From a virus (lineage: Duplodnaviria; Heunggongvirae; Uroviricota; Caudoviricetes): a stretch of 64,000 bases of DNA. How positions within the stretch are numbered: position 1 is the first letter of the stretch; each line of letters starts with the position of its first letter. Location of the stretch: IMG/VR virus record IMGVR_UViG_3300036768_001066. One strand, written 5' to 3'. Positions 1,552 through 58,663 of the stretch are shown piece by piece. The notes beneath the pieces are model-generated. The model saw only the letters and a program-made list of their open reading frames with translations. It made no database searches and was not told the DNA's origin. The translations under genes were made by a program, and so were the position numbers.

Positions 1552-2103
1552 ATGATTATCAATAGCAGGAGCAGTAATTTTATCTTCAACTTCCCGAGGG
1601 GTTTCTTCGACAAGGACATCGAGGACAAGTACTTGCCGTATGTGAAGCGCAACCCGCTACCGTTCGACACGGTGCACACCATGATGAACGCGCACGTTCA
1701 GTCGGTTACGTTCCCGAGCCTCAGCATGGAGCCAGTGTCGCAGACAAGGAAGTTCGGCAAGGAGCAGAACTACAAGAACTCCAAGCCCGTGTACGACCTG
1801 TTCACCCGCGACATGACGGTGACGATGAAGGCGCTCGACGGATACATCAACTACTGGATATTCATGGAGAACGCGCTCAAGTACCTCGAGGTCCTCGAGG
1901 AGAACCCGCCGTACTTCGACGACCTCAACATCGACTTCCTCAACCAGGAGGGCCACATCATAATGACCGCGAGGTTCAACAAGCTCGTGCTGACCGGAAT
2001 ATCCGAGATACAGCTGAGTTACTCCGACAACCAGCCGGAGTTCAAGACGTTCGATGCAACGTTCAGATTCAACAAGATGGACCTAATAGTAAAACGCGAC
2101 TAA
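1552..2103 (+). CDS. tail tube protein, T4 gp19-like
   Basis: 183 aa, size typical of tube proteins. Motifs RDMTVTM and ISEIQLSYSDNQPEFKTFDATFRFN resemble T4 gp19 DDWTVTV and VGELQLDWDSNNEIQTFEVTLALDY, judged by recall of the gp19 sequence. Confidence 0.55.
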   Translation: MIINSRSSNFIFNFPRGFFDKDIEDKYLPYVKRNPLPFDTVHTMMNAHVQSVTFPSLSMEPVSQTRKFGKEQNYKNSKPVYDLFTRDMTVTMKALDGYINYWIFMENALKYLEVLEENPPYFDDLNIDFLNQEGHIIMTARFNKLVLTGISEIQLSYSDNQPEFKTFDATFRFNKMDLIVKRD

Positions 2104-2906
2104 TGAGGCACCTCAAGAAATTTAATCAGCTGAACGAGAGCCTGGCCGGAGACGAGATAAAGAAGCTCATGTCGCTGCCTTACGAAAAATTCGTAAAGGA
2201 ACTGAAAGACGCGGTCAGCAATCCGAGGGTCCTATCCGTAATGGCGGCAGGCAAGCTCGACGGGCTCAAGCACGACGAGGTGGTATCTGCCGATGAAATA
2301 GCTGTAACTATTAGCTCGCTCACACCGACGCAATCGGAACTATCGCTGGACGACTCGCTCGAGAAGATGCCCGAATTCGCCAGGGACATAGCCGCAAACA
2401 AAGTACTGTCAATGGACAACCCTATAATAATAGCCAACGGCAAGTACATCATAGACGGCCACCACAGGTGGACGACTGCGTACATGATAGCCCCCAACGC
2501 CAAGATACAGGCGTACAACCTCAACATACCCGGGCTCGGCCCAATAGACATACTGAAGGCGGTCCAGATGGCGATAGCTGTCGAATTCGGCGAGGTAAAG
2601 ACGAAAGACCCGGGACCCGGCAAGGATGCGTTCGACGTGGACGAAAAAACCGCAATCGGGTGGATCGAGAAGAACGTGCCGCAATCCGTGCTGAAAGTAA
2701 CGGGGCTCCGGGACATGGCAGAGAACCTGGTAGAAATAACAGGGAAGAAGCTCGCCGGCTCACCCAACAGAAGATTCATGCCCCAGCCAAAGGCCTCAGC
2801 AAAGAAGGCCGGAATGGACAAGAACCTTGCTGTGTCGAAATTGCTCGCGCGCCTGCAATCAGGCACCGTTAACTTCAAGAATCCCGTAGAGGACGATGAT
2901 ATATAA
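2103..2906 (+). CDS. ParB/sulfiredoxin-like nuclease-domain protein with the N-terminal leader MRHLKKFNQLNE
   Basis: IIDGHHRW motif (DGxHR of the ParB/Srx fold). N-terminal leader shared with about 20 paralogs. Confidence 0.55.
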   Translation: MRHLKKFNQLNESLAGDEIKKLMSLPYEKFVKELKDAVSNPRVLSVMAAGKLDGLKHDEVVSADEIAVTISSLTPTQSELSLDDSLEKMPEFARDIAANKVLSMDNPIIIANGKYIIDGHHRWTTAYMIAPNAKIQAYNLNIPGLGPIDILKAVQMAIAVEFGEVKTKDPGPGKDAFDVDEKTAIGWIEKNVPQSVLKVTGLRDMAENLVEITGKKLAGSPNRRFMPQPKASAKKAGMDKNLAVSKLLARLQSGTVNFKNPVEDDDI

Positions 2907-2924
2907 GAAAATAATAAACGAGTC

Positions 2925-3038
2925 ATGATCCACAATTTTAAAGAATTCAGCAAACTGAACGAGGCGAGCCGCTCCAAGATAGAGGAGGTGCATGGTATGT
3001 TCGAGGATAACTCTATAATTTACAAAGTGACCCTATAA
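2925..3038 (+). CDS. small protein (37 aa) of the leader family (MIHNFKEFSKLNE...)
   Basis: Hand-translated small ORF absent from the six-frame track (under 60 aa). Carries the family leader. Its TAATG stop overlaps the start of the next ORF. Confidence 0.3.
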   Translation: MIHNFKEFSKLNEASRSKIEEVHGMFEDNSIIYKVTL

Positions 3039-3157
3039 TGAACAATATCGTCGACACGTACAAGCCGGGCAAGACGCTCGGCACGTACAGCATATACGAC
3101 AAGGGCAAGTTTGTAAAGACGGTAAAGCTCGACGCGCTGAAGAAGATGAAGAAGTAG
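3038..3157 (+). CDS. small hypothetical protein (39 aa)
   Basis: Hand-translated ORF MNNIVDTYKPGKTLGTYSIYDKGKFVKTVKLDALKKMKK with genome-typical codon bias. Confidence 0.25.
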   Translation: MNNIVDTYKPGKTLGTYSIYDKGKFVKTVKLDALKKMKK

Positions 3158-3198
3158 CACTCGAGGTTCGACAAAGACGCAAAGAAACACAAATAATC

Positions 3199-3768
3199 AT
3201 GGAGTTATTCAACGAATACAGGAGCAAGAAGCAGGGTGAACTCAACGAGGGCAAACAGGCACGAGAAGCCGGAATCGCAAACACGCTAAAGGACATCCTA
3301 AATACAGAAACGTTCACGATATACCCGGCAAGGAACGCGGACAATGCACTGACATGGACACTGGGCAACGACGAGCCGGAATTCAAGATGATACAGAACG
3401 CCATCAAGGCGAGAATAAAAAGGGCGGAGGCCGCAAACGAGAACGAGGCGGTACCATTGTACAAGGACCATGTGGCGAGCAAGAGCAATGGCATATCCTA
3501 CCTCACCGAGGAGGAGAACCAGCAGCTCGACGAAATGATGGTCGTTTTCGAGAACGAGTACGACGGCGACATACGCAACCTCGACGAGGGATTCTTCGGC
3601 AAATTGGTCGGAGGCGCGGCAGGATTCCTTGCCGGACCGATGATTGGCCGTATCATAGCAAAGGCGCTCGGTATAGAGAAGGGCATTCTCTATGACATGT
3701 TCACAAGCAGGCTCGTGTCAACCGCGCTCGGCGCAGCAATAAGCAAAGCTTGGACGGAGAAGAAATGA
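3199..3768 (+). CDS. hypothetical protein, leader family (MELFNEYRSKKQGELNE), with a C-terminal Gly-rich hydrophobic segment
   Basis: 189-aa ORF. C-terminus GGAAGFLAGPMIGRIIAKALG looks membrane-active. Confidence 0.5.
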   Translation: MELFNEYRSKKQGELNEGKQAREAGIANTLKDILNTETFTIYPARNADNALTWTLGNDEPEFKMIQNAIKARIKRAEAANENEAVPLYKDHVASKSNGISYLTEEENQQLDEMMVVFENEYDGDIRNLDEGFFGKLVGGAAGFLAGPMIGRIIAKALGIEKGILYDMFTSRLVSTALGAAISKAWTEKK

Positions 3769-4254: not shown

Positions 4255-4261
4255 TATTTTT

Positions 4262-4618
4262 TCATCTGTCCTTGTATTTATTTAGAAACTTCTTCGCCTT
4301 GTTTATGACGCCTTTCTTGAAGTACCTATCCTCGCTTACGCTGCCGAATCCTATCGCACCCTCGAGCCCGTCCAGTAGTTCCTCCAGGTTCTTTAGAATC
4401 TCTGCTTTCTTCTCGTCCACCTGGTGCTTCATCTTCACGTAGCTGGTTATCTCGTCAAGGTCCTTCTCCACGTTCTCCTTCCAGTACGCATCGCTGAGCT
4501 CGCCCTCTTCGGATATGATGTCATTTATCCCGTCTACGATCCCCATGTATATTGTCCATAGGTCGTACAACGGAACGCTTTCGGACTCAAACAATTCGAA
4601 TTTCGTCACTATGCTCAT
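4262..4618 (-). CDS. hypothetical protein, leader family (MSIVTKFELFESE)
   Basis: 118-aa ORF with codon bias and an acidic helical sequence. Confidence 0.5.
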   Translation of the reverse strand: MSIVTKFELFESESVPLYDLWTIYMGIVDGINDIISEEGELSDAYWKENVEKDLDEITSYVKMKHQVDEKKAEILKNLEELLDGLEGAIGFGSVSEDRYFKKGVINKAKKFLNKYKDR

Positions 4619-4916: not shown

Positions 4917-4943
4917 GTACAAAGACGAATTCGTAAGATAAAA

Positions 4944-4979: not shown

Positions 4980-4982
4980 CGG

Positions 4983-11771: not shown

Positions 11772-12713
11772 ATGAAAAAACGTTATTGCAAGGCATGCTC
11801 TATGCAGGAGCACGGGGTAAAAACCAGGATAGCCATACCGCACACGTGTGGCAAGGAGCCGCGCCGCATAAAGATGTTCGAGCAGTTCGTGTTCGAATCC
11901 ACTTACAATGTGCTGCACGGTACAAAGTCTCCTAAATTCGATAAGTTCCAGGTCAGTCATGATGAGGCCAACGGGATGTACGGCACAGACTCCCCCGATA
12001 ATGGCATGGGCGTGTTCTTCACCGATAACGATACAATGGCCGAGTTCTTCGCAGGTCTAACGCACTTCGATGCCGACAAGGGCAAATACGTGTCCAAGAG
12101 CGGCAAGGGACGTGTTATGAACGTGACCATCAGTATAGATAAGCCTTACGTCATCGATGACAAACACAAGGACTACGATGCCGATAACGATATGGACTCG
12201 GTGCAGATATATTTTGACGAAATAAAGGATGCTGGCGGTGCCGATAAGTACAGAGCTTCGTTAGAGAAGCGCGGATACGACGGGATAATCCTAAAGAAGT
12301 GCACCACGAATTATTACGGGAAGGGAACTTACACTGTATACGTTGTGTTCGATCCTCGCAATACTAAAATCAACGAGAACAAGTCCAAGATATACTACAA
12401 CCACTGGGACAAGCGTTGGACCATGAAGGAGTTCGTAAAGTATTTCGTGGACGAGCTGGGACTGTTCTCCGAACAGGAGGTTTCTAACTGGTTCGAGAAG
12501 TACGACTTAACCAATGATTCCGAGGTGGTTTGGGTGTCCATGGACAAGATGTCAAACAACACCAAGGGCATGTCTGTTGACCACTATTCTGGCGCCAACG
12601 ATGCGCCGAGTGCCGATATTTCGTCCATATTTGTTGACGGTGAGGATGGGTACGTGATCCCGGAAATTTCCGACGGTGCGAACAGCTGCCTCTTTGTTGT
12701 TAAACAAAAATAG
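11772..12713 (+). CDS. hypothetical protein. Has an internal leader-like motif MFEQFVFES at residue 35, which is an alternative start at 11874.
   Basis: 313-aa ORF. TATATATAAGAT lies directly upstream of 11772. The leader-like motif sits at an internal Met. Confidence 0.5.
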   Translation: MKKRYCKACSMQEHGVKTRIAIPHTCGKEPRRIKMFEQFVFESTYNVLHGTKSPKFDKFQVSHDEANGMYGTDSPDNGMGVFFTDNDTMAEFFAGLTHFDADKGKYVSKSGKGRVMNVTISIDKPYVIDDKHKDYDADNDMDSVQIYFDEIKDAGGADKYRASLEKRGYDGIILKKCTTNYYGKGTYTVYVVFDPRNTKINENKSKIYYNHWDKRWTMKEFVKYFVDELGLFSEQEVSNWFEKYDLTNDSEVVWVSMDKMSNNTKGMSVDHYSGANDAPSADISSIFVDGEDGYVIPEISDGANSCLFVVKQK

Positions 12714-12871: not shown

Positions 12872-13765
12872 GTGAAGCATATCCACACATTCAACGACTT
12901 TCTTTTCGAGGGCGGCAACGCGCTTGACAACACCCGCAGCATCAAGCAGAGCGAGGTGCAGGCTACGCTTGACTCGATACAAGACAACGTGTTCCCGGCA
13001 CTCGGTATTTCGAGCTGGGGCACCGACGCACTGCTCATAGGCTCTGCCGGCAAGAAGGAGTCCGACGAGGACGTATCTGGTGACCTCGACGTGGGCATAC
13101 CCATGAAGGAGTTCTGTGAGAAGCAGGGCGTCGTAGAGACGCAGGGCCTAAAGCAGGTGTACGACTTGCTAAAGCGCAAGTTCCCCGAGTTCCAGATAAA
13201 GTGGATGCGCGGCCTCGAGGTCGTGTCGATGTCGTACCCTATCAAGGGTGATCCCAACCTCGGTTACGTACAGGTGGACTTCCTCCCGCTGAAGAATATG
13301 GAGTGGGCGAAGTTCATATACCATTCCCCCAACTACAAGAAGGGCGAGAGCAAGTACAAGAGCGCGCACAGGAACTGGCTGTTCGCCGCCATCCTGTCGG
13401 TGCTAACGGGAGAGGAGGAACGCGACGAGCACGGCAACTTGCTCGGGTTCTCCGGCTACATGATGAGGCTCAACGACGGTCTCAGCAAGATAAGGAAATC
13501 GTACGTTGGTAAGAAGAAACTGCTCAAGAATCCGGTCATACAACCGGAGCACGAGGAGCTGATAACCAGGTCTCCAAAGGACTTTCTGGAGTTCGTGCTG
13601 GGTCCTGGAATACGGCCCAAAGATGCAGAAACATTCGAGCAGGTGTTCGAATATATAAATAAACCCGATTATATGTTCCATGATAAATTGGACGAAATCA
13701 AACGGAATTGTATTAAATTTTTAAAACGGGTTAAGTTGGAAATCCCGGCCGAACTTGAAAAATAA
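12872..13765 (+). CDS. nucleotidyltransferase-fold protein (Pol-beta superfamily signature) with leader MKHIHTFNDFLFE
   Basis: GSAGKKESDEDVSGDLDV fits the pattern G-[GS]-x(9-13)-D-h-[DE]. GTG start directly after TATATAA. Confidence 0.45.
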   Translation: MKHIHTFNDFLFEGGNALDNTRSIKQSEVQATLDSIQDNVFPALGISSWGTDALLIGSAGKKESDEDVSGDLDVGIPMKEFCEKQGVVETQGLKQVYDLLKRKFPEFQIKWMRGLEVVSMSYPIKGDPNLGYVQVDFLPLKNMEWAKFIYHSPNYKKGESKYKSAHRNWLFAAILSVLTGEEERDEHGNLLGFSGYMMRLNDGLSKIRKSYVGKKKLLKNPVIQPEHEELITRSPKDFLEFVLGPGIRPKDAETFEQVFEYINKPDYMFHDKLDEIKRNCIKFLKRVKLEIPAELEK

Positions 13766-16783: not shown

Positions 16784-17110
16784 ATGGGACTTAAGAAATT
16801 CGGAGAGTTCGAGACGACCCGCAATGAGGCGCTCGAAGCGGAGAAGGCCAACGCTTGGAAGAAGCTCGATGACGAGCGCACAATCATTGGCGTTGAGTGG
16901 CGCGGAGCCGGTAAATGGGGGACGGTAGGTATCGTTGCCGTGCACAACACGAAGATGAACTACTGGACCGCTTACATGGGCGTGGCCGATGAGCGTGACG
17001 AGCGGCAGGACGCATTCGCTATCGCGGACTACGGCAATAAGATGGTGCCGGAAGAGGCCAAGGCGTACTTCCCGCACATCAAGGACATCAAATACAAAAT
17101 GGAGGACTAA
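16784..17110 (+). CDS. hypothetical protein, leader family (MGLKKFGEFETTRNE)
   Basis: 108-aa ORF. Confidence 0.5.
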   Translation: MGLKKFGEFETTRNEALEAEKANAWKKLDDERTIIGVEWRGAGKWGTVGIVAVHNTKMNYWTAYMGVADERDERQDAFAIADYGNKMVPEEAKAYFPHIKDIKYKMED

Positions 17111-43296: not shown

Positions 43297-44811
43297 ATGA
43301 AAATGATCAACGAACAAGAGGTTTTTGAAACTTGGTCTCCGGTTATCAACGAGAAGACTAATATCAAAGACTCGAACAAAGTAGAATGGCTTTCTAAGTA
43401 CTGCCACTACCACTCGCTCAATGAGTCTGCTATCCACGCTGGATACGGCACTCTCGACGCGCTTAACGGTATGGGCCAGCCTTTGGCTCCGACCAGGTCC
43501 GCTAACGGTTCCGGCGACAAGTTCCCTTCACTTCTTCCGCTCGCTATCCAGGTAGCAGCTAAGACTGTAGGTTTCGACATCGTTCCGGTTATCCCGATGC
43601 CAGGCCCAACAGGTGTTCTCACCTACCTCGATTACGTTTACGCAGGTGGACGTATCGACAACGCTGACCATAAGCCACTCCTGATCAAGTTCAACGCGAC
43701 AGGTACGTGGACTAACGGTACATCGTACACCGCAACTTCAGGTGCTGGTACCCTTGCCCTTACCTTCGTTGGTAAGTCGAGGATCGACGGTTACCCAATC
43801 TTCAAGGTTGGTGCATCTACTCCGTCTACCATCTCTGTAGCTCAGGTTATTGGTGTGGTTGGCGCGACAGTAACAACTGACGCAGCTCCGGTTGCAGCTA
43901 CTAACGCTGCTGCCCTCGTAGCAATGCTCGAAGATCACATCCAAGGTTTCGCTGGTGCAGGTGACACTGACACAGCTAACTGGACCGGTCCTTACGCAGA
44001 TGCTAACGACTCTGGTCCAATGACCCGTGAAGTTGGTGAGTCTACCTACTACAGGACGACTAACCTCAAGACTTTCACCAAGTTCGTTGAGACTGAGACC
44101 TACCAGCTTGCTGCGCAGGTAACTACTGAGCAGATACAAGACCTTAACAAGCAGTTCGGTATCGACGTTGTGTCGATGGTTGAGAACTCGCTCGTTAACG
44201 ATGTATCACAGCACATCAACAAACACATCCTCGTGACCGCATTCGGTCTTGGTACGCAGAACGCTACTGAGTTCGCTGCAACTGAAGGACAGGTGCTCGA
44301 CCTCAACCTTACGGCTCTGCCTACGGTTGGTACGTACGAGAACCTCCAGACGTTCCAGAGGAGAATCTTCAGCCGCATACTTGCTGCCGCTAACGTAGTA
44401 GCAAACCGTGGTCGTCGTGGACCTGCGAACTTCGTTGTATGTAACTCTCAGATTGCTACGGCGATCCAGGACATCAGCCAGTTCCAGCCAGCTCCGTTCG
44501 CGAACACCGCAAGCCAGAACAACGGTGCTCTCTACCCAGTAGGATCACTCGCTGGTATGACTGTGTACGTTGACCAGAACATGAAGTGGACTGACACTCG
44601 CGTACTTGTCGGCCGTAAGGGCGCAGACGACGAGCCAGGTCTGAAGTTCATGCCGTACATGATGGCTGAGTCTATCCAGACAATCTCTGAAGGCACTATG
44701 TCTCCGAAGATCGCTGTGAAGTCTCGCTACGCCCTCGTGTCAGCTGGATTCCACCCACAGACAATGTACTTCACTTTCACGATCCAGGTGCCTACCTCAG
44801 GTATCATCTAA
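43297..44811 (+). CDS. major capsid protein, T4 gp23-like (HK97 fold)
   Basis: FDIVPVIPMPGPTGVLTYLDYVYAGG resembles the conserved gp23 core block (V..V.PM..P.G.i.YL). 504 aa. Preceded by the protease-scaffold gene and followed by a strong terminator. Confidence 0.75.
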   Translation: MKMINEQEVFETWSPVINEKTNIKDSNKVEWLSKYCHYHSLNESAIHAGYGTLDALNGMGQPLAPTRSANGSGDKFPSLLPLAIQVAAKTVGFDIVPVIPMPGPTGVLTYLDYVYAGGRIDNADHKPLLIKFNATGTWTNGTSYTATSGAGTLALTFVGKSRIDGYPIFKVGASTPSTISVAQVIGVVGATVTTDAAPVAATNAAALVAMLEDHIQGFAGAGDTDTANWTGPYADANDSGPMTREVGESTYYRTTNLKTFTKFVETETYQLAAQVTTEQIQDLNKQFGIDVVSMVENSLVNDVSQHINKHILVTAFGLGTQNATEFAATEGQVLDLNLTALPTVGTYENLQTFQRRIFSRILAAANVVANRGRRGPANFVVCNSQIATAIQDISQFQPAPFANTASQNNGALYPVGSLAGMTVYVDQNMKWTDTRVLVGRKGADDEPGLKFMPYMMAESIQTISEGTMSPKIAVKSRYALVSAGFHPQTMYFTFTIQVPTSGII

Positions 44812-51298: not shown

Positions 51299-51754
51299 AT
51301 GAAGCACGTAAAGACTTTCCAATTATGGGAGGGCAAGAAGAGGAACCCAGAGAAGTACAAGACCGGCGATTACAAATGGTACGATGCCGAGGAATTCCTC
51401 AAACTCATAGACGCGGTGGCGGCTAAAGCGCCTGACATGGAGTGGGGTACGCCGTCCGACATCTACGGGCACGCGACCCATTACGCCAAGTTCGAGGAGG
51501 CCAAGTCGGAGCTCGAGAAGTGGGTCAAGTACTGGTCCGACAGGAAGGACCCGGTCAAGCTCTGCATCTGGAGCATAGATGACTCGAGACTCAACTACAT
51601 AAACAGCACCAGGCTGCTCGCATCCGGGCTCGAGAAACTCGCGGAATTCGTGGAGCCTGGCAAGTCAAAGCGCGTAAGCATAACCATGAACAACAAGGGC
51701 ATAAGCGACTTCGGCGCCGCCATGAGCCGCGGCGATTACGGCTCACTTGATTAA
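51299..51754 (+). CDS. hypothetical protein, leader family (MKHVKTFQLWE)
   Basis: 151-aa ORF. Confidence 0.5.
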   Translation: MKHVKTFQLWEGKKRNPEKYKTGDYKWYDAEEFLKLIDAVAAKAPDMEWGTPSDIYGHATHYAKFEEAKSELEKWVKYWSDRKDPVKLCIWSIDDSRLNYINSTRLLASGLEKLAEFVEPGKSKRVSITMNNKGISDFGAAMSRGDYGSLD

Positions 51755-51776
51755 ATAATCGAGGATATATAAGACA

Positions 51777-51887
51777 TGAAGAACATCAAGCTATTTAAAC
51801 AATTCGTGGGAGAACTAAACGAGACCTACCACGATATGAAATACGACGGACACGACATGGTCATGTTCGGCAAATACATATCATAAA
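51777..51887 (+). CDS. small protein (36 aa), leader family (MKNIKLFKQFVGELNE)
   Basis: Hand-translated ORF with TATATAAGAC directly upstream of the ATG. Confidence 0.3.
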
Positions 51888-51900: not shown

Positions 51901-52629
51901 ATGAGCAAATACGACAGACTTGATTCCCTGCTTGAGGGTTTCGAAAACAGGATAGCGATAGGAGACCTCGAGGACAAGGTAAAGGCCACGCTAATGAAAA
52001 AGCTCGGTGAGGACTTCACACTATCCGGCCCCGGCAAGAAAACAATCGAGGACGAGATGGGAACCGTTTACTTCGACATAGACACACTCGAAGTGGAGAA
52101 CGACGGATCCACAGAGACCATCGCGGACCTGCTCGGGATAACGCCGGACGAGTTTGCCGCCAAGATAAAGGGCGAGCTCGAGAAGATGCCGGCTACCGAC
52201 CTCGGCAAGTACGAGTCCATTGTTCAGGAGAGCACCGGCAGGTTTCTTTACGGCATAAAGACGTTCGAATCTTTTCAGGCAACTGAGGTGGTTAATGAGT
52301 CGGAAATTCCGGAGGAGCTGAAGAACGTGAAGCAGATAGCCGCTATTACCGAGGACAAGTATGATGATATGCACGGCGTTCTACCCCCGATATACATATC
52401 CTCGATAGACGGCATAAAGGTCGGAGGTTTTGCGGTGTCCGAACCGTACGATTCGTTTAAGGGCCTGCCTACGTTTGGCGTGTACTTCAAGTTCAAGGGC
52501 AAGTACTACAGCGCTGTCGCATCACTGACCAAGGACGACGGCAAGCCAATAACCTTCGCCTCGTACAACAACCAGGAGTTCACCAGGAACAACAGGGCGA
52601 CGAGTGTAGAAAAAGAAAGTAGAGAATAA
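51901..52629 (+). CDS. hypothetical protein, leader-like (MSKYDRLDSLLE)
   Basis: 242-aa ORF. Confidence 0.5.
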   Translation: MSKYDRLDSLLEGFENRIAIGDLEDKVKATLMKKLGEDFTLSGPGKKTIEDEMGTVYFDIDTLEVENDGSTETIADLLGITPDEFAAKIKGELEKMPATDLGKYESIVQESTGRFLYGIKTFESFQATEVVNESEIPEELKNVKQIAAITEDKYDDMHGVLPPIYISSIDGIKVGGFAVSEPYDSFKGLPTFGVYFKFKGKYYSAVASLTKDDGKPITFASYNNQEFTRNNRATSVEKESRE

Positions 52630-52630
52630 C

Positions 52631-53380
52631 ATGAAGTTCAGCAAATTCGAAAAGATAAGCTCGCTCCTCGAGTACCACTCGCCGGAAGAAGTAGACAAGC
52701 AGATACTCGAGTCGTACGGGCTCGACGAGTCGGACATCTCTGACATCGAGAGCGTCAACGAAGGACTATTTGACAAGTTCAAAAACATGCTCAGCAAGGC
52801 GCTGCCAGGCGGGGCTATAAACAAGGCCGAGAAGATCCTGAAGGACTACGAGAACATCAAGAAGGACACGTTGAAGAAGATCGGCTCGCTGAGGACTACT
52901 GCGTTCAAGGCGAAAATAAAGGCCAACGCCAACAAAGACGACAAGAATCTTGCAGACCTCGCGGCTGAAGCCGATGACCGCATGAAGCGTGCGTCAAGGA
53001 TTGTACAGAACGCGGAGGATAAGCAGATGCAGGCGATAGAGGACAGGCTCATGACGTTCGTAAAGGACAAGCCGGACCGCGTGAAGTCGTACGTACAGAT
53101 GCGTGTCGCCGAGATACAACAGAAGATGGCGGAGCTCGAGATGAAGGATGCGCAGAATTACGGTTCCGAGGAAGAGTTGAAGAAGCTCGAGGACATCGTG
53201 AAGAAGCGCGGTGCGCTCAAGCAAAAGTACGCTACCAAGCTCGAGAAGATAGCCAAGGGCGGCAAGGACGCTAAGAACACGGGTCAGCTTGACAAGGAGA
53301 TTGAGACGGCAAAGAAGGACCTGGAGAAGGTCGAGGGCGGTAAGAAAGAGGGTGAACAAGAACAGAAAAAAGCTGCGTAA
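52631..53380 (+). CDS. hypothetical KE-rich coiled-coil protein, leader family (MKFSKFEKISSLLE)
   Basis: 249-aa ORF. Confidence 0.5.
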   Translation: MKFSKFEKISSLLEYHSPEEVDKQILESYGLDESDISDIESVNEGLFDKFKNMLSKALPGGAINKAEKILKDYENIKKDTLKKIGSLRTTAFKAKIKANANKDDKNLADLAAEADDRMKRASRIVQNAEDKQMQAIEDRLMTFVKDKPDRVKSYVQMRVAEIQQKMAELEMKDAQNYGSEEELKKLEDIVKKRGALKQKYATKLEKIAKGGKDAKNTGQLDKEIETAKKDLEKVEGGKKEGEQEQKKAA

Positions 53381-54723
53381 TGATAAAGTTCCATCAGTTT
53401 GAGAAAATAAAGAATGCTATCGATGGGGGCGTCGATATGGCGGAGCTAACTTCGCTGATGGAGTCGGAGAACCTGAGCGAGGGCATATTCTCGAGCATAA
53501 TGAACTACTTCTCCAAGCTGCTTGGCGGTAAGATCGACAAGCTCGACAAGATAATCTCCAAGTACAAGTCCAACGAACATGACTACTGGGCTAAGTGGGC
53601 GGACGCCAACTTCAAGTTCAACGAGGCAGACGCGTTGATGCGCCAGACGAGCGACCCATCTGAGAAAGAGAAGTATCTTGAGATGAAGCAGAGGGCGGAC
53701 AAGCTGCTCAGGGTTGTGGACTCGTCAAGGGACGAGGTCAACGATGCGTTGTCGCGCCAGGCGCAGCACATAATAAAGGGTAACGCACGGCTCGGCGATT
53801 ACTACCTCATGGCAAAGGCCAAGGCCGACGAAGAGGTCGCCAACGAGAGCTACAAGAAGTTGAAGAAACTGTCCGACAAGGACACGGTCGACACGCTCTA
53901 CAAGAAGGTGGAGGTCGACACAGAGAACGCGCGCAAGAAGGAGGAAGAGTTCAAGAAGAAGTATGGCGGACAATCTACTGGCTCGATGCGCGAGTTCAGG
54001 GGGGCGGGCGAAAGCACGCTGTCAAAGCTCGGCGTGGATGATATAGACGATATGGTGTACAAGGATCTGAACGACGTCAGGGACGAGCTTGACGAGATAG
54101 CGGCCGACGACAAGAAAAAGAAGAACCTCGAGGTGTACCTTGCGAGCAAGATAAAGAGAGTCAAAGACAAGCTTGCGGATGAGACTAAGAAGGGTCCGAG
54201 CACGTCGCTCGAGAGCACGGCCAAGCACATAATAAGCACGCTCGAGAAGAAGATAGACTACCTGCAGAAGGCTGGGTTCTCCGCAAAGGTTAAGGACGAG
54301 GTGAAGAGCGACCCCGAGGTGGTCACTCCAGTGACAACCCCGGAGATCGGCAAGGAAAACGTTGCGGACACCATACAGAACTCCATAGATAAGGTCGGCG
54401 ACGACGCGAAGGATGTGATCGAGGACCTAACAAAGGAGACTGACAAGTTCTTCAAGGACGCCAAGTCCATAATAGAGGACACTACCGGCCCAATATCCGA
54501 CGAGAGGTACGAGCTGCTGAAGGACGACCTGGTGTCTCTGTTCGGCAAGCTGACGTTCGCGTACAAGAGAGACAATAAGGAGATGAAGATGCGCACATTG
54601 CAGATGAGTATTGTTAATTTCGCAGGCAAGGTTTACGAGTACAAGAAAAAGAAAAACAAGCTCGACGGCAGTCTGACGGACATAGAGCTCGAGGAGTTGT
54701 TCGATACATATAACAAAGGATAA
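53380..54723 (+). CDS. hypothetical KE-rich coiled-coil protein, leader family (MIKFHQFEKIKNAI)
   Basis: 447-aa ORF. Confidence 0.5.
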   Translation: MIKFHQFEKIKNAIDGGVDMAELTSLMESENLSEGIFSSIMNYFSKLLGGKIDKLDKIISKYKSNEHDYWAKWADANFKFNEADALMRQTSDPSEKEKYLEMKQRADKLLRVVDSSRDEVNDALSRQAQHIIKGNARLGDYYLMAKAKADEEVANESYKKLKKLSDKDTVDTLYKKVEVDTENARKKEEEFKKKYGGQSTGSMREFRGAGESTLSKLGVDDIDDMVYKDLNDVRDELDEIAADDKKKKNLEVYLASKIKRVKDKLADETKKGPSTSLESTAKHIISTLEKKIDYLQKAGFSAKVKDEVKSDPEVVTPVTTPEIGKENVADTIQNSIDKVGDDAKDVIEDLTKETDKFFKDAKSIIEDTTGPISDERYELLKDDLVSLFGKLTFAYKRDNKEMKMRTLQMSIVNFAGKVYEYKKKKNKLDGSLTDIELEELFDTYNKG

Positions 54724-54727
54724 TACA

Positions 54728-55876
54728 ATGAGGGTACTTGGCTTTGACGGATGGAGCAACCTCAACGAGGCTGCACAGTTCGACGACATAGTGGACAAGG
54801 TGAAGACTGCGGTTGAACCGGATATGGGCAAGCTTAATGTTGTCAAGGACCTCCACACATTCAAGCGCCCGGGGGAACCCGTGCAGACCGCCATACTTTT
54901 CAGCAACGACAAGATGCAGTCGTTCGCACTGAACATCGTCAAGGCGACCAACAAGCTGTACAGTATTGACATCTGGAAGCCGGAATCGAAGGGACCAGTG
55001 GCCACCGTGTATGCTAACAAGATGAGCGTTGACGATATTGTGCCGCAGCTCCCGGAGCTGGTTAACAACCCGAAGGTTAACGAGAAGGAAACCGATCTGA
55101 CCATCGCCGCGCCCAAGGCTAAGGAAGATACTACAGAGGACGCTAAGGTTGACGACGAGTACATCTTTGCGGACGATGAGGACGAGCTGTTCGACCAGAT
55201 ACGTTCGTACGTTGACATGGTAATCAAGGGCAAGCAGCCGGCGCTCATGCTGACCGGCATGCCAGGTCTCGGCAAGACGAGGATCGTCAAGGACCGCCTC
55301 GATGCAGCGGGAATGAAGCGCGACGTAGATTACGTGAAGATAACCGGAACCGCCTCCGCGGTCGGTTTGTACACGCAGCTGTACGAGAACAACGGGAAGT
55401 TCATCCTGTTCGACGACTGCGACGGTGTGTTCGATGACAAGGATGGCGTCAATGTGTTGAAGGGAGCGCTCGACTCCGATGACAGGGAAATATCGTGGGC
55501 GAAGGCAAGCAAGCTAAGGACGTCTGACGACAAGCCCGTTCCAAAGAGGTTCGAGTTCAAGGGTAAGATAATATTCATAAGCAACAAGTCGATAAAGTCA
55601 CTGCCGCCGGCGCTGAAGAGCCGCTCGTTCATAGTGGAGGGAGCGTTGAGACCTAAGGACATGGCAGAGTACATGGAGAAGAATATAAAGGGATTCATGC
55701 CCGAAGAGAGCATGGAAGCGAAGAAGTTTGCGCTGAGCACCATAAAAGCGATAGCGAAGGAGGATCCTAAGATCAAGATTGACTGGAGGACCTTGCAGAA
55801 GGCCATGCGCATACTCGATTCGGTTTCTGATCTGGCGAAGGCAAAAAAAATGATAGCGCAGCAAGCGTACAACTAA
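54728..55876 (+). CDS. AAA+ ATPase with the leader-like N-terminus MRVLGFDGWSNLNE
   Basis: Walker A LTGMPGLGKT. Walker B ILFDDCDG. Sensor-like IIFISNKS. Confidence 0.55.
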   Translation: MRVLGFDGWSNLNEAAQFDDIVDKVKTAVEPDMGKLNVVKDLHTFKRPGEPVQTAILFSNDKMQSFALNIVKATNKLYSIDIWKPESKGPVATVYANKMSVDDIVPQLPELVNNPKVNEKETDLTIAAPKAKEDTTEDAKVDDEYIFADDEDELFDQIRSYVDMVIKGKQPALMLTGMPGLGKTRIVKDRLDAAGMKRDVDYVKITGTASAVGLYTQLYENNGKFILFDDCDGVFDDKDGVNVLKGALDSDDREISWAKASKLRTSDDKPVPKRFEFKGKIIFISNKSIKSLPPALKSRSFIVEGALRPKDMAEYMEKNIKGFMPEESMEAKKFALSTIKAIAKEDPKIKIDWRTLQKAMRILDSVSDLAKAKKMIAQQAYN

Positions 55877-55890
55877 AACAACGAATCACA

Positions 55891-56217
55891 ATGAAGTACC
55901 TGAAATTGTTCAACGAGGGCGAGCGAGATCAGCGCCAGAGGGACAACGAGGCCAAGTCCAAGGAGGTCATGAAGGTCGCGACCCCAGAGCAGAAGAAGGT
56001 GCTGGATGACATGCAGTCGGGCACGGAGTACTTCTTCTTCCTGATGCCGTTAAAGCTCGGCGAGATCACGCCGGAGGCGATAGACTTCCAGCTCCAGGTG
56101 ATGATAAACTCGGTGGAGGGCGACAAGTCACAACTCGAGGACGAGCACGTCAAGTACGGCGAGAAGAAGGGCTGGTTTGACGGGTTCGATGAAAGCTTAC
56201 AGGAAAAAGTAAATTGA
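55891..56217 (+). CDS. hypothetical protein, leader family (MKYLKLFNE)
   Basis: 108-aa ORF. Confidence 0.45.
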   Translation: MKYLKLFNEGERDQRQRDNEAKSKEVMKVATPEQKKVLDDMQSGTEYFFFLMPLKLGEITPEAIDFQLQVMINSVEGDKSQLEDEHVKYGEKKGWFDGFDESLQEKVN

Positions 56218-56446: not shown

Positions 56447-57220
56447 ATGAAGACAACTTCAACGAGTTCGTCGCCTGCTGCCTATTTGGCCGTTGGCAGG
56501 GACCAAAACAGACTCAAAATCTACGGAGGCAGCAAAGTCTATCTCCAAGACGGCCAGGAGTTCTTGATAGAGCTTTTCAATCCAACACAGAACACTATCG
56601 GCGCCAAGATCTTCATCAACGGCAAAGCCATATCCGGCAGGATGGTCGTGCTTCGCCCGGGTGAGAGAGATGTGCTTCGTCGGTACATCGACAAGGATCG
56701 CAAGTTCGTGTTCAACACCTACAAGGTGGGTGACACGCCGGAGGCGAGACATGCCATATCGCGAAACGGGTTCGTCAGGGTGGAGTTCTACCGCGAGTGC
56801 CGTCCGTACACCATGATAACCTGGGGTGTGGGTGGGACGAGCCTCAACATCACAAATACAGGCAGCGGCATGGGTCCGCTGTACAGGTCCACGACCGGAG
56901 ACGCCCGATCTCTGTTTAGCCAGGACCTCAGTGCCAACATTGGGGACGTTCAGTGCAACAATGTCACGCACGACAGCTTATCAAGTCTCAACGAGGTTGA
57001 GACCGGGAGGATAGAGGCTGGTAATGCGAGCGGACAGAGCTTCGACACGTATCACGGGACTTTCGAGTACTACAGCTTCGCGAACAGCGAGTACCAGATA
57101 CTGCCAATGTCGATGCAGCCGGTTGAGGCTTCCAAGATACGCCAGTATTGCCCTGGATGCCGCAACAGGATACGCAAGTCAAGCTGGAAGTACTGCCCAT
57201 CGTGCGGCGAGTTACTATAG
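56447..57220 (+). CDS. hypothetical protein with a C-terminal zinc ribbon (CPGC...CPSCG)
   Basis: 257-aa ORF. Confidence 0.45.
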   Translation: MKTTSTSSSPAAYLAVGRDQNRLKIYGGSKVYLQDGQEFLIELFNPTQNTIGAKIFINGKAISGRMVVLRPGERDVLRRYIDKDRKFVFNTYKVGDTPEARHAISRNGFVRVEFYRECRPYTMITWGVGGTSLNITNTGSGMGPLYRSTTGDARSLFSQDLSANIGDVQCNNVTHDSLSSLNEVETGRIEAGNASGQSFDTYHGTFEYYSFANSEYQILPMSMQPVEASKIRQYCPGCRNRIRKSSWKYCPSCGELL

Positions 57221-57418
57221 ATTAACAAAAACAAATACGACAACAATGGAACATGTAAGAATCAAGTCGGGTTCTACGGACATCATCTCCGTCAAAAAGG
57301 CACAGCGTTAGCTTCGCGTTTCCAGACTCTTTCTTCTGGTCGGCGAGGAAGGCGTTAAAACCTTCGATTGTTTTTCCTACCAATCCTGAGGTCCTGATGG
57401 TAGACCTGTCGAGAATAC

Positions 57419-57450
57419 AGACGGGTGGCTATAAAAGTCACCCGTTTTTT
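57419..57450 (+). terminator. rho-independent terminator (acgggtg / cacccgt plus a T9 run)
   Basis: Hairpin followed by TTTTTTTTT. Confidence 0.6.
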
Positions 57451-57527
57451 TTTGGAATTTTTTTTGTTGTTATGCTTCCATATATTAAAAAAAACTTCTT
57501 ATCTTCACTATAAAATCAATCAAAATC

Positions 57528-58415
57528 ATGACAATGAAAACCGTAAAACTTTTTACTCAGTCACAGTGGGAAACATTCGAGTACGATAAACTCAGCGACA
57601 TCTCCGCTGAGTTCAAAAAGCGCGGCATTAGCATCGGCCAGCGCGTGAGCATCGGCGAAGGCGCGAGCATCGGCGAAGGCGCGAGCATCGGCGAAGGCGC
57701 GAGCATCGGCGAAGGCGCGAGCATCGGCGAAGGCGCGAGCATCGGCGAAGGCGCGAGCATCGGCGAAGGCGCGAGCATCGCCCCCCGCGCGAGCATCGGA
57801 TGGGGCGCGAGCATCGCCCCCCGCGCGATCATCGGCGAAGGCGCAAGCATCGACCCCCGCACGAACATCGGCGAAGGCGCGAGCATCGGCGAAGGCGCGA
57901 GCATCGGCGAAGGCGCGAGCATCGGCGAAGGCGCGAGCATCGCCCCCCGCGCGATCATCGGCCGGGGCACGAACATCGGCGAAGGCGCGAGCATCGGCGA
58001 AGGCGCGAGCATCGGCCCACGCGCGAGCATCGGCGAAGGCGCGAGCATCGGCCCACGCGCGAGCATCGGCGAAGGCGCGAGCATCGGCCCCCGCGCGAAC
58101 GTCGGATGGGGCGCGATCATCGGCGACGGCGCGATCATCGGCCCCCGCGCGAACATCGGCCGGGGCGCGATCATCGAGGAATGCGTTATCGTGCGCTCTC
58201 TCAGCTTCAACGGCTCAAGACATCACGTGTCATATTGGGGCTCAGATGAGATTCAAATCGGCTGCATGAAATACTCTATAAAATATTGGCAAAATAACCT
58301 CAAGAGCGTCGGTGAAACCGAAGATTACAGCGCAGAAGAGATCGCGGAGTATGGCAACTACATCGAGTTGATTGCAAATTTGCATGAGAAAAACGCGCTG
58401 TCTCACATCGGATGA
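57528..58415 (+). CDS. hexapeptide-repeat (left-handed beta-helix-type) protein with the leader MTMKTVKLFTQSQWE
   Basis: About 28 consecutive I-G-E-G-A-S hexapeptides, encoded by an 18-bp tandem array. Non-repetitive C-terminal domain. Confidence 0.55.
   Translation: MTMKTVKLFTQSQWETFEYDKLSDISAEFKKRGISIGQRVSIGEGASIGEGASIGEGASIGEGASIGEGASIGEGASIGEGASIAPRASIGWGASIAPRAIIGEGASIDPRTNIGEGASIGEGASIGEGASIGEGASIAPRAIIGRGTNIGEGASIGEGASIGPRASIGEGASIGPRASIGEGASIGPRANVGWGAIIGDGAIIGPRANIGRGAIIEECVIVRSLSFNGSRHHVSYWGSDEIQIGCMKYSIKYWQNNLKSVGETEDYSAEEIAEYGNYIELIANLHEKNALSHIG
57650..58190 (+). repeat. 18-bp coding tandem repeat array (ggcgaaggcgcgagcatc and variants), about 30 copies
   Basis: Directly visible periodicity. 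It creates spurious antisense and shifted-frame ORFs in the six-frame track. Confidence 0.85.
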
Positions 58416-58663
58416 AATCGGTAAAACTTTTTACTCAGTCACGGTGGGAAACATTCGAGTACGATAAACTCAGCGACATCTCCGCTGAGTTCAAAAAGCG
58501 TGGCATTAGCATCGGCCAGCGCGCGAGCATCGGATGGGACGCGAGCATCGGCCCCCGCGCGAACATCGGCGAAGGCGCGAGCATCGGCGAAGGCGCGAAA
58601 ATCGGTCGGTGCGCGAGCATCCGCCAGCGCGCGAGCATCGACGATGGCGCGATCATAAAGTAA
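58412..58663 (+). CDS. truncated paralog of the hexapeptide-repeat gene (same leader, 5 repeats, no C-terminal domain)
   Basis: N-terminal 40 aa are near-identical to 57528 (MKSVKLFTQSRWETFEYDKLSDISAEFKKRGISIGQR). Confidence 0.4.
   Translation: MKSVKLFTQSRWETFEYDKLSDISAEFKKRGISIGQRASIGWDASIGPRANIGEGASIGEGAKIGRCASIRQRASIDDGAIIK

Follow-up and report, generated by a model that had tools for sequence, protein, structure and literature searches.

We identified a short peptide tag on otherwise unrelated proteins of an uncultured huge phage whose sequence indicates a T4-type head module. Of the 102 genes that we called in the window (the whole 64-kb stretch of DNA analysed), 16, about one in six, start with M-[KR]-x-[ILV]-[KH]-x-F-x(1-2)-[FLW]...[hydrophobic]-[N/x]-E, a tag of 9–16 residues that ends in Glu. 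The tag is real, selected at the protein level and virus-specific, and it is a separable unit that lies apart from the folded domains and is closed by a conserved Glu. We consider it probable (about 0.6) that the tag is a T4-type capsid-address peptide with a built-in release site, whose bearers would be packaged and then cleaved. The comparative tests that we ran all fit a cleavable address peptide.

The original observation of a leader shared by many N-termini holds. The 16 genes are those that reach an ad hoc leader score of at least 5, devised after the data had been seen; independent sequence sets confirmed the motif. None of 429 internal Met positions reached this score, 0.33 were expected from all positions, and shuffling residues 2–26 2000 times gave a mean of 0.48 passing genes (maximum 4) versus the 16 observed. 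Tagged genes are clustered (8 adjacent pairs versus 2.4 expected, p=0.0002). Hydrophobic-Asn-Glu is 3.1-fold enriched within the first 50 residues (p=1.8e-4), and control tripeptides show no enrichment there.

Tagged genes lie on the plus strand unless noted, and a slash marks the bond after a Glu. The first group includes genes at 2103..2906 (267 aa, MRHLKKFNQLNE/S), 2925..3038 (a 37-aa short ORF, MIHNFKEFSKLNE/A), 4262..4618 on the minus strand (118 aa, MSIVTKFELFE/S), 12872..13765 (297 aa, GTG start, MKHIHTFNDFLFE/GG), 16784..17110 (108 aa, MGLKKFGEFETTRNE/A), 17110..17640 (176 aa, MRKIFTFDRFVNE/NYVNE/D), 17811..18170 (119 aa, MKNIKLFEDFSVNE/D), 18167..18550 (127 aa, GTG start, MKHIKKISDLFE/K, with a second site ELNE/G at residue 36) and 19845..20267 (140 aa, an 11-residue tag followed by K). 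The family of the 17110 protein carries MKHIKLFE tags in IMG/VR members L101, L104 and L161. Further along are 51299..51754 (151 aa, MKHVKTFQLWE/G), 51776..51886 (a 36-aa short ORF, MKNIKLFKQFVGELNE/T), 52631..53380 (249 aa, MKFSKFEKISSLLE/Y, second site SVNE/G at residue 45), 54728..55876 (382 aa, MRVLGFDGWSNLNE/A) and 55891..56217 (108 aa, MKYLKLFNE/G, the shortest tag). The gene at 53380..54723 (447 aa) has a weaker N-terminus, MIKFHQFEKIKNAI.., with no early Glu site and NLSE/G at residue 34. The protein at 57528..58415 (295 aa) begins M-T-MKTVKLFTQSQWE/T and its tag is more canonical when read from the second Met at 57534; 58412..58663 (83 aa, MKSVKLFTQSRWE/T) is a truncated duplicate of this gene.

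The core of the 22 members originally listed is solid. Five of them are wrongly placed or only weak, and the ATG given as 51777 is at 51776, a shift of one nucleotide. The Met at 11874 is internal: the tag, RRIKMFEQFVFE/S, occupies residues 31–42 of an ORF at 11772..12713 (313 aa), after a CxxC..HxC N-terminal stretch. The protein at 51901..52629 (242 aa) matches weakly at its N-terminus (MSKYDRLDSLLE/G) and carries a canonical internal copy at residues 119–133 (IKTFESFQATEVVNE/S). At 3199..3768 (189 aa) the N-terminus MELFNEYRSKKQGELNE/G (MELFNEY..ELNE/G) lacks the K-x-F core, leaving a weak member; the C-terminus of this protein is glycine-zipper-like. The 29-aa ORF at 3765 lies in the zone where 3199 and 4254 overlap and is a doubtful gene. 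The minus-strand ORF at 4254 (MLFEQFLNE/G) was passed over by our coding-potential caller and resembles non-coding sequence in its C-terminal half.

These proteins had been described as about 20 paralogues, but they are not. All-against-all BLASTP beyond residue 20 matched only the duplicates 57528 and 58412 and, weakly, 52631 and 53380; apart from these two pairs, only the tag is common. Gene clustering and the duplicate pair are what a single diverged family with a well-conserved leader would predict. The folds, however, differ, and single cargo domains have untagged homologues, so we regard common descent of the whole proteins as refuted and give it almost no weight.

The cargo identities vary in support. 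The hexapeptide-repeat assignment of 57528, a left-handed beta-helix, was confirmed (3e-37), and AlphaFold with Foldseek bore out the nucleotidyltransferase fold of 12872 as Pol-beta-type. A ParB/Srx-like domain in 2103 has weak to moderate support: the Pfam match (2e-4) is below the cut-off, while the motif (II)DGHHRW is invariant and the top Foldseek matches are all ParB/Srx (E ~3e-3). The AAA+ call for 54728 stands on sub-threshold Pfam matches and on homologous P-loop proteins in other phages, the P-loop/AAA-like domain covering residues 150–340; its AAA homologues in small phages have neither the tag nor the first 150 residues. We add a further cargo type, as the 11772 ORF encodes an ART-PolyVal ADP-ribosyltransferase. 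The 52631 and 53380 proteins are Lys/Glu-rich, with coiled coil predicted from composition.

Could the likeness lie in the DNA rather than in the peptide? Such a reading invokes nucleotide constraints at translation starts (an unstructured, A-rich sequence there, or a promoter that overlaps it), or else 5' gene ends that were recently duplicated or recombined. MK.. starts are common, as are A-rich start regions, the element ATATATAA lies 3 nt ahead of three start codons, and 57528 and 58412 are true duplicates. Yet synonymous codons for the conserved tag residues vary between tags, and therefore selection acts on the peptide. Conservation also reaches Phe, Phe, Asn and Glu at positions 7–13, beyond the first codons; the peptide is seen inside proteins and at their C-termini as well as at N-termini; and it persists in homologues at 42% identity and in genomes of 24–52% G+C. 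Codon variation, conservation at positions 7–13 and the C-terminal copies largely refute this explanation, which we hold to be very improbable.

Several observations indicate that the tag is a module that stops at its Glu. First, AlphaFold models the cargo domains of 12872 and 2103 confidently (pLDDT 91.5 and 87.6), while residues 1–14 and 1–9, respectively, fall below 50 and are conserved nonetheless. Second, the 12872 family has 243 homologues, and ..F..F..L[FN]E/GG was present in all 120 inspected among the matches listed. Among GenBank phages this nucleotidyltransferase family was found only in Lak genomes, and the Lak-A2 homologue begins MSGMAIKGS, exactly where the 12872 tag ends. Third, in 88 independent IMG/VR sequences selected solely for MKHIKLFE, the following positions are conserved (F10 76%, [IVL]11 62%, N12 39%, E13 67%) and conservation does not extend past position 13; hydrophobic-x-Glu was absent from residues 9–22 in about a third of them (24 of 88), a point against the capsid-address reading.

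The ParB-like family of 2103 shows the tag at the other terminus. Close orthologues retain the N-terminal tag, and distant homologues, 10 of the 32 in all, carry the tag core at their extreme C-terminus, with hydrophobic-x-Glu just upstream in nine of these ten (..TVE/NTKWIKTYEQFRNKK). Among them, a paralogue in the same genome ends ..RYE/MRHLKMFENFNKDTK, followed by a terminator hairpin. The Glu thus closes an N-terminal tag and immediately precedes a C-terminal one, which by sequence makes the tag independent of terminus, with its Glu on the cargo side in both positions.

The window encodes a candidate enzyme for these sites. The gp21-like protease originally proposed at 41290..43278 (662 aa, plus strand) is confirmed by a Pfam Peptidase_S77 match of 38.4 bits against a cut-off of 27, placing an S77 (T4 gp21 family) domain at about residues 18–265, and by a PHROG head maturation protease match (1.5e-40). 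Aligned to the T4 gp21 structure 5JBL, it keeps the His and Ser positions. Beyond this domain are about ten tandem 14-aa units (YSEYLAENLDKNIS), each with an LAE/N site, and the tail has sites VNE/S, MNE/S and LNE/N. The next gene, 43297..44811 (plus strand), encodes the major capsid protein (gp23 family, 504 aa, 144 bits). Its 44 conserved N-terminal residues end in HSLNE/S, invariant in 23 relatives and equivalent to HQINE/N and HELYE/N in two distant huge phages; HSLNE/S is the predicted capsid maturation site.

Tagged genes are also linked to head genes. In relatives, the gene directly after the capsid gene encodes a tagged scaffold-like protein (Lys/Glu-rich, with coiled coil predicted by composition) that has a second ..VNE/G site. 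The 52631–54728 cluster is syntenic with head genes in the nearest relatives: in L008 a homologue of 52631 follows the capsid gene at a distance of about 5 kb, and in L012 one of 53380 lies near the capsid gene. The element ATATATAA occurs at 14 sites in the window versus 0.86 expected, including 26 nt upstream of 41290, before the protease–capsid operon. Six of its 12 plus-strand sites precede tagged genes or clusters (p=0.008); it lies 3 nt ahead of the 11772 ATG and of 51776, 19 nt upstream of 51299, and at 2899 before 2925. That it is a late promoter is a guess.

A different role for the tag would be as a short linear docking motif for another hub, with the adjacent Glu coincidental or serving another protease. 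The hub might belong to the replisome (a sliding clamp, for example), be a chaperone or an unfoldase, or be an intracellular compartment that the phage builds, for instance from the vault-protein-like product of 30830. Terminus independence on many nucleic-acid enzymes recalls clamp-binding and cargo-loading peptides, the tag is disordered in the AlphaFold models, the window encodes an MVP-shoulder/SPFH (vault-protein-like) protein at 30830, and packaging is itself inferred. Against this, the window's DNA polymerase, ligase, helicase and single-stranded DNA-binding protein lack the tag at either end, and scaffold-like proteins adjoining the capsid gene bear it. The motif also ends at Glu in an S77-cut context, the same context that closes the conserved capsid propeptide, and hydrophobic-x-Glu separates cargo from tag in nearly all C-terminal copies. 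We therefore consider such docking unlikely.

Less likely still, the tag might be a pro-sequence that is removed, or a signal for stability, with no part in capsid addressing; it might then keep enzymes inactive or set when a protease of the phage or host degrades or activates them. A sharp Glu boundary and disorder would suit any propeptide, and a second protease gene (M50 peptidase, 20369) is present. But a disordered peptide of 9–13 residues is unlikely to inhibit each unrelated fold, and M50 proteases cleave within membranes, for which none of these tags is hydrophobic enough. The link to scaffold-like proteins and the capsid propeptide site would also be left unexplained.

The distribution of the tag follows viruses. 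MKHIKLFE was found in more than 120 viral stretches in IMG/VR (a lower bound), several with 2–5 copies, whereas 596 Gb of bacterial and archaeal genomes yielded only eight occurrences, all in metagenome-assembled genomes (MAGs). The tag is found in huge phages with both an S77 protease and a gp23-type capsid protein; of the 669 genes of the complete 462-kb relative LR756500.1, only 15 carry it. The capsid gene of Lak phages is related, yet the tag was absent there from the one family that we checked and from the 40 kb around it; the tag is therefore no necessary partner of this head type. We found no published description of this tag in the literature.

In format the tag matches MKTYQEFIAE, the capsid targeting sequence of T4, where residues 4 and 7 carry targeting and residues 8 and 10 processing (PMC9026906). 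Hydrophobic residues are likewise conserved here at positions 4 and 7, followed by a hydrophobic-x-Glu that corresponds to the T4 processing positions, in a tag too short for a homology test. T4 gp21 cuts after L/I-x-E (PMC9026906; PMC8442874), and C-terminal processing is likewise known from T4 Alt and gp21 (PMC9026906). The proposal that L-N-E-type endings suit a gp21-type protease gains from the Glu boundary and the matching capsid site. T4 internal proteins are basic, whereas the tagged cargo proteins here are not. One gene in six is also a very high fraction for virion cargo, which counts against packaging.

If the tag is a capsid address, its amphipathic stretch, with hydrophobics at positions 4, 7 and about 10, would dock cargo on the scaffolding core of the assembling prohead, and the gp23-type shell would close round this core. 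Conservation of the sites suggests that the 41290 protease would then cut after the Glu of hydrophobic-x-Glu, with a preference for hydrophobic-Asn-Glu. It would remove the 44-residue capsid propeptide at HSLNE/S, chop its own repeat-rich, scaffold-like C-terminal half at the LAE/N sites and clip the tag from each cargo protein. As with the internal proteins and Alt of T4, mature cargo may stay in the head and enter the host with the DNA. The predicted cargo comprises the ADP-ribosyltransferase, ParB/Srx-like protein, Pol-beta-type nucleotidyltransferase, P-loop ATPase and hexapeptide-repeat protein, along with scaffold-like Lys/Glu-rich proteins and numerous small ones of unknown function. 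Injection is known or predicted for proteins of these types: T4 Alt is, like the 11772 product, an ADP-ribosyltransferase, and polyvalent proteins include ParB-like and ART domains (PMC5512222). That the tagged proteins act as anti-defence effectors is a plausible guess.

We identified a short peptide tag of 9–16 residues, ending in glutamate, at the start of about one sixth of the genes in the window. All 22 starts listed in the original prediction were translated, and gene calling with a codon-usage model yielded 102 genes that cover 89% of the window. N-termini were scored at positions 2 (K/R), 4 (hydrophobic), 5 (basic), 7 (F) and 10 (aromatic or Leu) and for [NLFWIGV]-E thereafter, tolerating one-residue register shifts; this score (threshold ≥5) was designed after the data were seen. 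Sixteen of the 102 gene starts reach the threshold, against 0 of 429 internal Met positions (0.33 expected from all positions). The proposed enrichment at N-termini stands, as 2000 rounds of shuffling the N-termini gave 0.48 on average and never more than 4. Despite the post hoc score, the motif is reproduced by three independent sequence data sets. Tagged genes are clustered at 2.1–4.6, 12.9–20.3 and 51.3–58.7 kb, with 8 adjacent pairs against 2.4 expected (p=0.0002).

Hydrophobic-Asn-Glu is 3.1 times as frequent in the first 50 residues of the window's proteins as beyond them (23 occurrences in 4,463 residues vs 23 in 13,983, p=1.8e-4), and control tripeptides (hydrophobic-Asp-Glu, -Gln-Glu, -Asn-Asp and reversed) are not enriched there. 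Six hydrophobic-NE-[GSA] sites lie outside N-termini, two of them in the tail of the head maturation protease and two in tagged proteins. Because the tags encode their conserved residues (Lys, Phe, Leu, Ile, Asn and Glu) with differing codons, their likeness is neither DNA-level identity nor a translation-start artefact; the tag is selected at the peptide level. Sec, Tat and lipoprotein signals were rejected since the tags have no hydrophobic core.

Several listed members required revision. The member placed at 51777 is genuine, but its ATG is at 51776. The motif seen at 11874 is present at residues 31–42 (RRIKMFEQFVFE↓S; arrows mark the predicted cut after Glu) of an ORF that starts at 11772, 11874 being an internal Met and not a gene start. 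In the protein at 51901 the N-terminus matches weakly, but a canonical copy lies further inside (IKTFESFQATEVVNE↓S, residues 119–133). The listed members at 3199, 3765 and 4254 (minus strand) are weak or doubtful as genes. The shortest tag, MKYLKLFNE↓G at 55891, has nine residues.

The carriers had been described as paralogous, a claim that did not survive: BLASTP past residue 20 links only the proteins at 57528 and 58412 and, weakly, those at 52631 and 53380. Recognisable domains (at most one per tagged protein) are unrelated to one another. The hexapeptide-repeat protein at 57528 was recovered (beta-helix match, 3e-37), and 58412–58663 (+) is a truncated, diverged duplicate of it with the first 40 residues near-identical. 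An 18-bp unit repeated about 30 times (57630–58176 and 58508–58656) encodes the SIGEGA hexapeptides of the 57528 protein. The nucleotidyltransferase fold assigned to 12872 was likewise upheld and is of the Pol-beta type: the AlphaFold model has a pLDDT of 91.5, Foldseek ranks Pol beta, Pol mu, TdT, CutA, Cid1 and OAS1 highest, and G-S...D-x-D is invariant. For the ParB/Srx domain at 2103, Foldseek sees the fold (the top 16 matches are all ParB, Noc or Srx-fold, with E of 3e-3 or weaker, and sulfiredoxin is at ranks 20–24), but the Pfam ParBc_2 match (2e-4) falls below the cut-off. IIDGHHRW is invariant, and matches of the ParB-like family profile to PDB sequences at the DGHHRW motif are non-significant. 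The supposed AAA+ ATPase at 54728 is P-loop/AAA-like, with homologous P-loop proteins in other phages, but its Pfam matches are sub-threshold. Of the supposed KE-rich coiled-coil proteins, those at 52631 and 53380 are indeed Lys/Glu-rich, and their coiled coil is predicted from composition. The 11772 ORF encodes an ART-PolyVal ADP-ribosyltransferase (1.7e-12).

Among 42 tagged IMG/VR proteins there are few Pfam matches: two GNAT acetyltransferases, an ankyrin-repeat protein, an LRR protein, a cytidylyltransferase and an Acb1-like 2H phosphoesterase. The homologue of one tagged IMG/VR protein in Microcystis phage Mel-JY01 is part of a longer fusion. Within the window, a 642-aa protein (14456–16384, +) fuses RNA-ligase-like and cytidylyltransferase-like domains, an architecture also annotated in Mel-JY01; a 423-aa ligase-like relative in IMG/VR bears the tag form MKHIKLFE.

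By sequence comparison, the window is part of the genome of an uncultured huge phage, because its head region has only short 69–74% blastn matches among GenBank phages, to two uncultured 635–642 kb phages and Prevotella Lak megaphages, because a protein identical to one in the window sits on a 373,759-bp metagenomic contig, and because relatives of its capsid protein (57–77% identical) lie on IMG/VR contigs of up to 482 kb. The 51–58.7 kb cluster has no blastn match among GenBank phages, and neither this cluster nor the head region revealed an annotated close relative there. We found no cultured relative of this huge-phage clade. The window has a G+C content of about 50% and no tRNA genes. Sequencing runs SRR11727984 and SRR11728137 contain this phage.

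To follow the tag through IMG/VR, MKHIKLFE, which is how it reads in relatives of the phage, was back-translated and scanned. It occurs in at least 120 stretches; among the matches listed, several loci have 2–5 copies, and the 482-kb contig bearing the closest capsid gene has four. Bacterial and archaeal genomes (596 Gb) contain only 8 occurrences, all in MAGs. A boundary profile was built from 88 distinct IMG/VR sequences, picked from the matches listed by residues 1–8 alone. Position 10 is F in 76% and F/Y/W in 95%, position 11 is I/V/L in 62%, position 12 is N in 39% and position 13 is E in 67%. Conservation is nil from position 14 onward, which defines the unit as M-K-H-I-K-L-F-E-x-F-[IVL]-N-E, with hydrophobic-x-Glu at its end. 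About a quarter of the 88 sequences lack an early hydrophobic-x-Glu. Of the 669 genes in the complete 462-kb genome LR756500.1, only 15 begin with MKYI[KQ].Y..F[ILV].E, and 7 core matches lie elsewhere in 139,743 residues; the density in the window (16%) is thus high locally or for the lineage. At an IMG/VR locus (L090, IMGVR_UViG_3300042559_001610, 2276–5241), five consecutive genes begin MKHIKLFE[DE]Y[ST][DE]EE[LI].DL[IL]GDL.., which looks like an array of tandem tagged genes with a longer common N-terminal region.

The tag behaves as a module separable from its cargo, the protein part beside it. The 12872 nucleotidyltransferase family comprises 243 homologues on contigs of up to 390 kb and, among GenBank phages, is found in Lak genomes only. 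An N-terminal ...[FY]..F..L[FN]E↓GG[AN]A is present in nearly all of the 120 homologues listed (of 243), down to about 41% identity, and is missing from 2 of their 70 distinct N-termini. In AlphaFold models, pLDDT is below 50 for residues 1–14 of the 12872 protein and above 90 for the adjoining domain, and below 50 for residues 1–9 of the 2103 protein (mean 87.6). The Lak-A2 homologue of 12872 starts MSGMAIKGS, aligned to the GGAAIKS directly after the tag, with an in-frame stop three codons upstream. In Lak phages the tag is missing where examined, a 40-kb Lak-A2 region with TAG read as Gln. As a negative control, the IMG/VR AAA homologues of 54728 belong to small phages, have the P-loop domain alone in common with it and bear no tag. 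A double-glycine bacteriocin leader was rejected, as GG follows the Glu in one family only and is part of the mature domain in Lak.

In P0017, another 12872 homologue, 40 residues with CxxC...CxxC are inserted after the tag's targeting half (MKLNYIRLFEEF) and before ..INE↓GG, and in the window's ADP-ribosyltransferase a CxxC..HxC stretch precedes the internal tag. Judging from such sequences, small zinc-ribbon-like pieces seem to associate with the tag.

The tag also occurs at C-termini. Of 32 homologues in the ParB-like family, the four closest keep an N-terminal tag and ten others carry the core at the extreme C-terminus (for example ..ITVE↓NTKWIKTYEQFRNKK, ..MTIE↓SKKWIKTFEQFKAKR and ..VYFE↓SSKWIKTFEQFRNKR), with hydrophobic-x-Glu just upstream of the core in nine. 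P0130, a ParB-like paralogue in the same 373,759-bp genome, ends ..HRYE↓MRHLKMFENFNKDTK; its stop codon is followed by a terminator hairpin, with no gene downstream on that strand. The tag is found at either protein end, with its Glu toward the cargo (nine of ten C-terminal copies). Such a layout is what a cleavable address peptide predicts, and is hard to square with a folded N-terminal element.

Cleavable address peptides are known from phage T4. There, MKTYQEFIAE on IPI/IPII/IPIII and related propeptides on Alt, gp24, gp22, gp67 and gp68 are removed by gp21 (MEROPS S77), which cuts after L/I-x-E (PMC9026906). Residues 4 and 7 of the T4 capsid targeting sequence function in targeting and the hydrophobic-x-Glu end in processing (PMC9026906). 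The first 10 residues of internal proteins suffice to package foreign proteins; residues 8 and 10 function in processing, and Asp at position 10 stops cleavage but not targeting. T-even internal proteins are a diverse set with the capsid targeting sequence alone in common, and Alt and gp21 are also cut at the C-terminus.

As in T4, a peptide of about 10 N-terminal residues is common to unrelated proteins here, with I/L/V at position 4, F (or Y) at position 7 and [ILVF]-[N/x]-E at the end. The likeness put forward in the original prediction holds as a pattern only (M, K, hydrophobic 4, F7, hydrophobic-x-Glu): M1, K2, F7 and the terminal Glu of MKTYQEFIAE are identical in the tag, ten residues being too short for a significant score. 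An ADP-ribosyltransferase is among the predicted cargo, as Alt is in T4. Unlike in T4, the consensus defined here has Glu at 9–16 and prefers Asn at P2, the residue before it; there are 16–17 carriers in 64 kb, against the IPs, Alt and a handful of head proteins in T4 (PMC5694885); the tag, known here from sequences alone, is also internal or C-terminal; the predicted cargo consists mostly of acidic or neutral enzymes, not small basic proteins; and the protease continues into a long scaffold-like half rich in repeats. We infer packaging and cleavage, and consider the tag a capsid-targeting signal of the T4 type with a probability of about 0.6. By analogy, the predicted cargo fits proteins known or predicted to be injected (an ADP-ribosyltransferase like Alt, a ParB-like protein).

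The window resembles T4 further in encoding an S77 protease and a gp23-family capsid protein with a predicted N-terminal propeptide. The gp21-like protease (41290–43278, 662 aa), correctly recognised at the outset, matches Pfam Peptidase_S77 (PF03420) at 38.4 bits (cut-off 27), phrog_207 at 1.5e-40 and, by phmmer, the T4 gp21 structure 5JBL at E=1.9e-4. The His of GELDHP and the Ser of SSRAAGS align with 5JBL and are taken to be catalytic, as in gp21. The major capsid protein (43297–44811; Pfam Gp23, 144 bits) matches its family from residue 77. Across 23 relatives, its residues 1–44 show high conservation and close with an invariant HSLNE↓S, the predicted end of the propeptide, beyond which the sequence diverges. 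The counterparts in two distant huge phages are HQINE↓N and HELYE↓N. In T4 gp23, cleavage follows ..LTE↓A, at residue 65.

The C-terminal half of the protease contains about 10 tandem 14-residue units YSEYLAENLDKNIS, each with LAE↓N, followed by VNE↓S, MNE↓S and LNE↓N. The units are encoded by a 42-bp sequence repeated about 10 times (42149–42611). The 642-kb phage LR756502.1 retains them, and LR756500.1 has degenerate versions. By analogy with T4 gp22, this half looks like a scaffold that is chopped up; the repeat region may be a scaffold or the tag's docking platform. In relatives, the gene directly 3' of the capsid gene encodes a 380-aa Lys/Glu-rich protein that starts MKNIPSFNEFKKYEDLLE..YHSVNE↓G, with a coiled coil predicted from composition. 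The nearest relatives have homologues of 52631, 53380, 54728 and 56486 at 4–10 kb downstream of their capsid gene.

We identified 14 copies of the octamer ATATATAA in the window, against 0.86 expected, mostly intergenic and upstream of genes (2899, 11761, 12861, 13651, 14401, 16598, 16683, 20267, 27693(-), 37242(-), 41256, 51272, 51765 and 56331). It stands before the protease-capsid operon; six of its 12 plus-strand sites stand before tagged genes or clusters of them (p=0.008), and it also precedes the gene for the C-terminally tagged P0130 (at 6306 of IMG/VR locus L210). It lies exactly 3 nt before the start codons at 11772, 12872 and 51776, a spacing that may reflect leaderless or very short-leader mRNAs. 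The octamer is a candidate phage promoter similar to the T4 late promoter TATAAATA, and its placement suggests common regulation of head and tagged genes; late timing would be a guess. A perfect 18-bp direct repeat (TTTATCCACGTTATTAGT, two copies, 51225–51260) lies just upstream of an octamer site, in the divergent intergenic region between 50798–51265(-) and the first tagged gene of that cluster, 51299(+).

Profile matches place the window's core genes as T4-like. They include a gp32-like single-stranded DNA-binding protein, a helicase, an NAD-dependent ligase and a DNA polymerase fragment (34901–36328) that covers only part of the PHROG polymerase profiles. None of these replication proteins bears the tag, which argues against a clamp-binding or replisome-docking motif. 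Docking to another hub or compartment is the main rival to capsid targeting, and the window does offer one structure of possible relevance, a vault-protein-like gene (30830–33244, +, 804 aa; Major Vault Protein shoulder 2e-27, Vault_3 repeat 2e-9, SPFH/Band 7 3e-5; no PHROG match). Such a gene is, to our knowledge, unusual in a phage, and we regard it here as a curiosity and the docking explanation as unlikely. Between the vault-like gene and the polymerase fragment lies a 245-aa ORF (33259–33996, -) whose N-terminus (..YMLIDPVSDEVKYIGKT..) resembles, by eye, a GIY-YIG homing endonuclease. A Peptidase_M50 (site-2 protease family) membrane protein (20369–21223, +; 4e-20) is encoded directly 3' of the tagged-gene cluster at 16.8–20.3 kb.

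Capsid targeting, the reading we favour, belongs to a mechanism class already known from T4 and phiKZ-like phages. In phiKZ-like giants (phiKZ, 201phi2-1, SPN3US), a diverged gp21-type protease cuts dozens of head proteins after Glu (gp175/gp245 cut at S/A-x-E), packaging and ejection extend to many enzymes, among them the virion RNA polymerase, and propeptides have been proposed to be prohead-targeting (PMC5694885). However, those propeptides are mostly 80–130 residues long and have no common short tag, P3 is small (Ser/Ala/Gly) and not hydrophobic, and the capsid-protein lineage is unrelated, with no gp23-family Pfam match. In encapsulins, similarly, a short disordered C- or N-terminal peptide loads unrelated enzymes into an HK97-fold shell and cargo is predictable from sequence, but there is no portal, DNA, protease or release, the peptide is kept and the consensus is unrelated. 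An encapsulin cargo-loading peptide was rejected, the shell here being a gp23-family phage capsid protein whose gene adjoins that of a prohead protease on the genome of a huge phage.

ART-PolyVal and ParB-like modules are a hallmark of proteins whose packaging and injection have been predicted or demonstrated (PMC5512222), and both are present here, as in polyvalent proteins and the phage P1 Dar system. Unlike in polyvalent proteins, the modules are separate small tagged proteins and not many in one giant polypeptide; membership (at least two disparate effector domains per polypeptide) was rejected, each tagged protein having at most one. We saw no MuF, no portal and no DarA-type packaging adaptor in the window.

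In the literature on capsid targeting in huge, Lak and jumbo phages and on prohead proteases of Bacteroidota phages, we found no description of this consensus and its spread through a large uncultured huge-phage clade, nor of the number and variety of carriers and the C-terminal and internal use. The tag is not described in Al-Shayeb 2020, Iyer 2021 or 'moraphage' 2025. We propose tentatively, at rather less than even odds, that a 13-residue address tag with a built-in release site, usable at either end, preloads dozens of unrelated enzymes, and that the injected 'starter proteome' is larger and more varied than that of any studied phage. The preloaded enzymes, locally one sixth of genes, would include an ADP-ribosyltransferase, a nucleotidyltransferase, a ParB-like protein, a P-loop ATPase and acyltransferases.

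Huge phages each carry hundreds of genes of unknown function. If the proposal is true, a sequence rule would separate the first-minute arsenal from the remaining genome across thousands of metagenomic contigs, making the injected proteome of uncultured huge phages readable from sequence. It would also yield a focused list of candidate host-takeover or anti-defence proteins, of which the tagged Acb1-like 2H phosphoesterase and two GNAT acetyltransferases from IMG/VR are already known. As a compact and putatively self-removing packaging signal, the tag might be put to use for loading foreign proteins into capsids, following the precedent of the T4 sequence. Under this proposal, the T4 mechanism would also reach a distant branch of the T4-like head lineage, a very large one, with C-terminal and internal tag positions.
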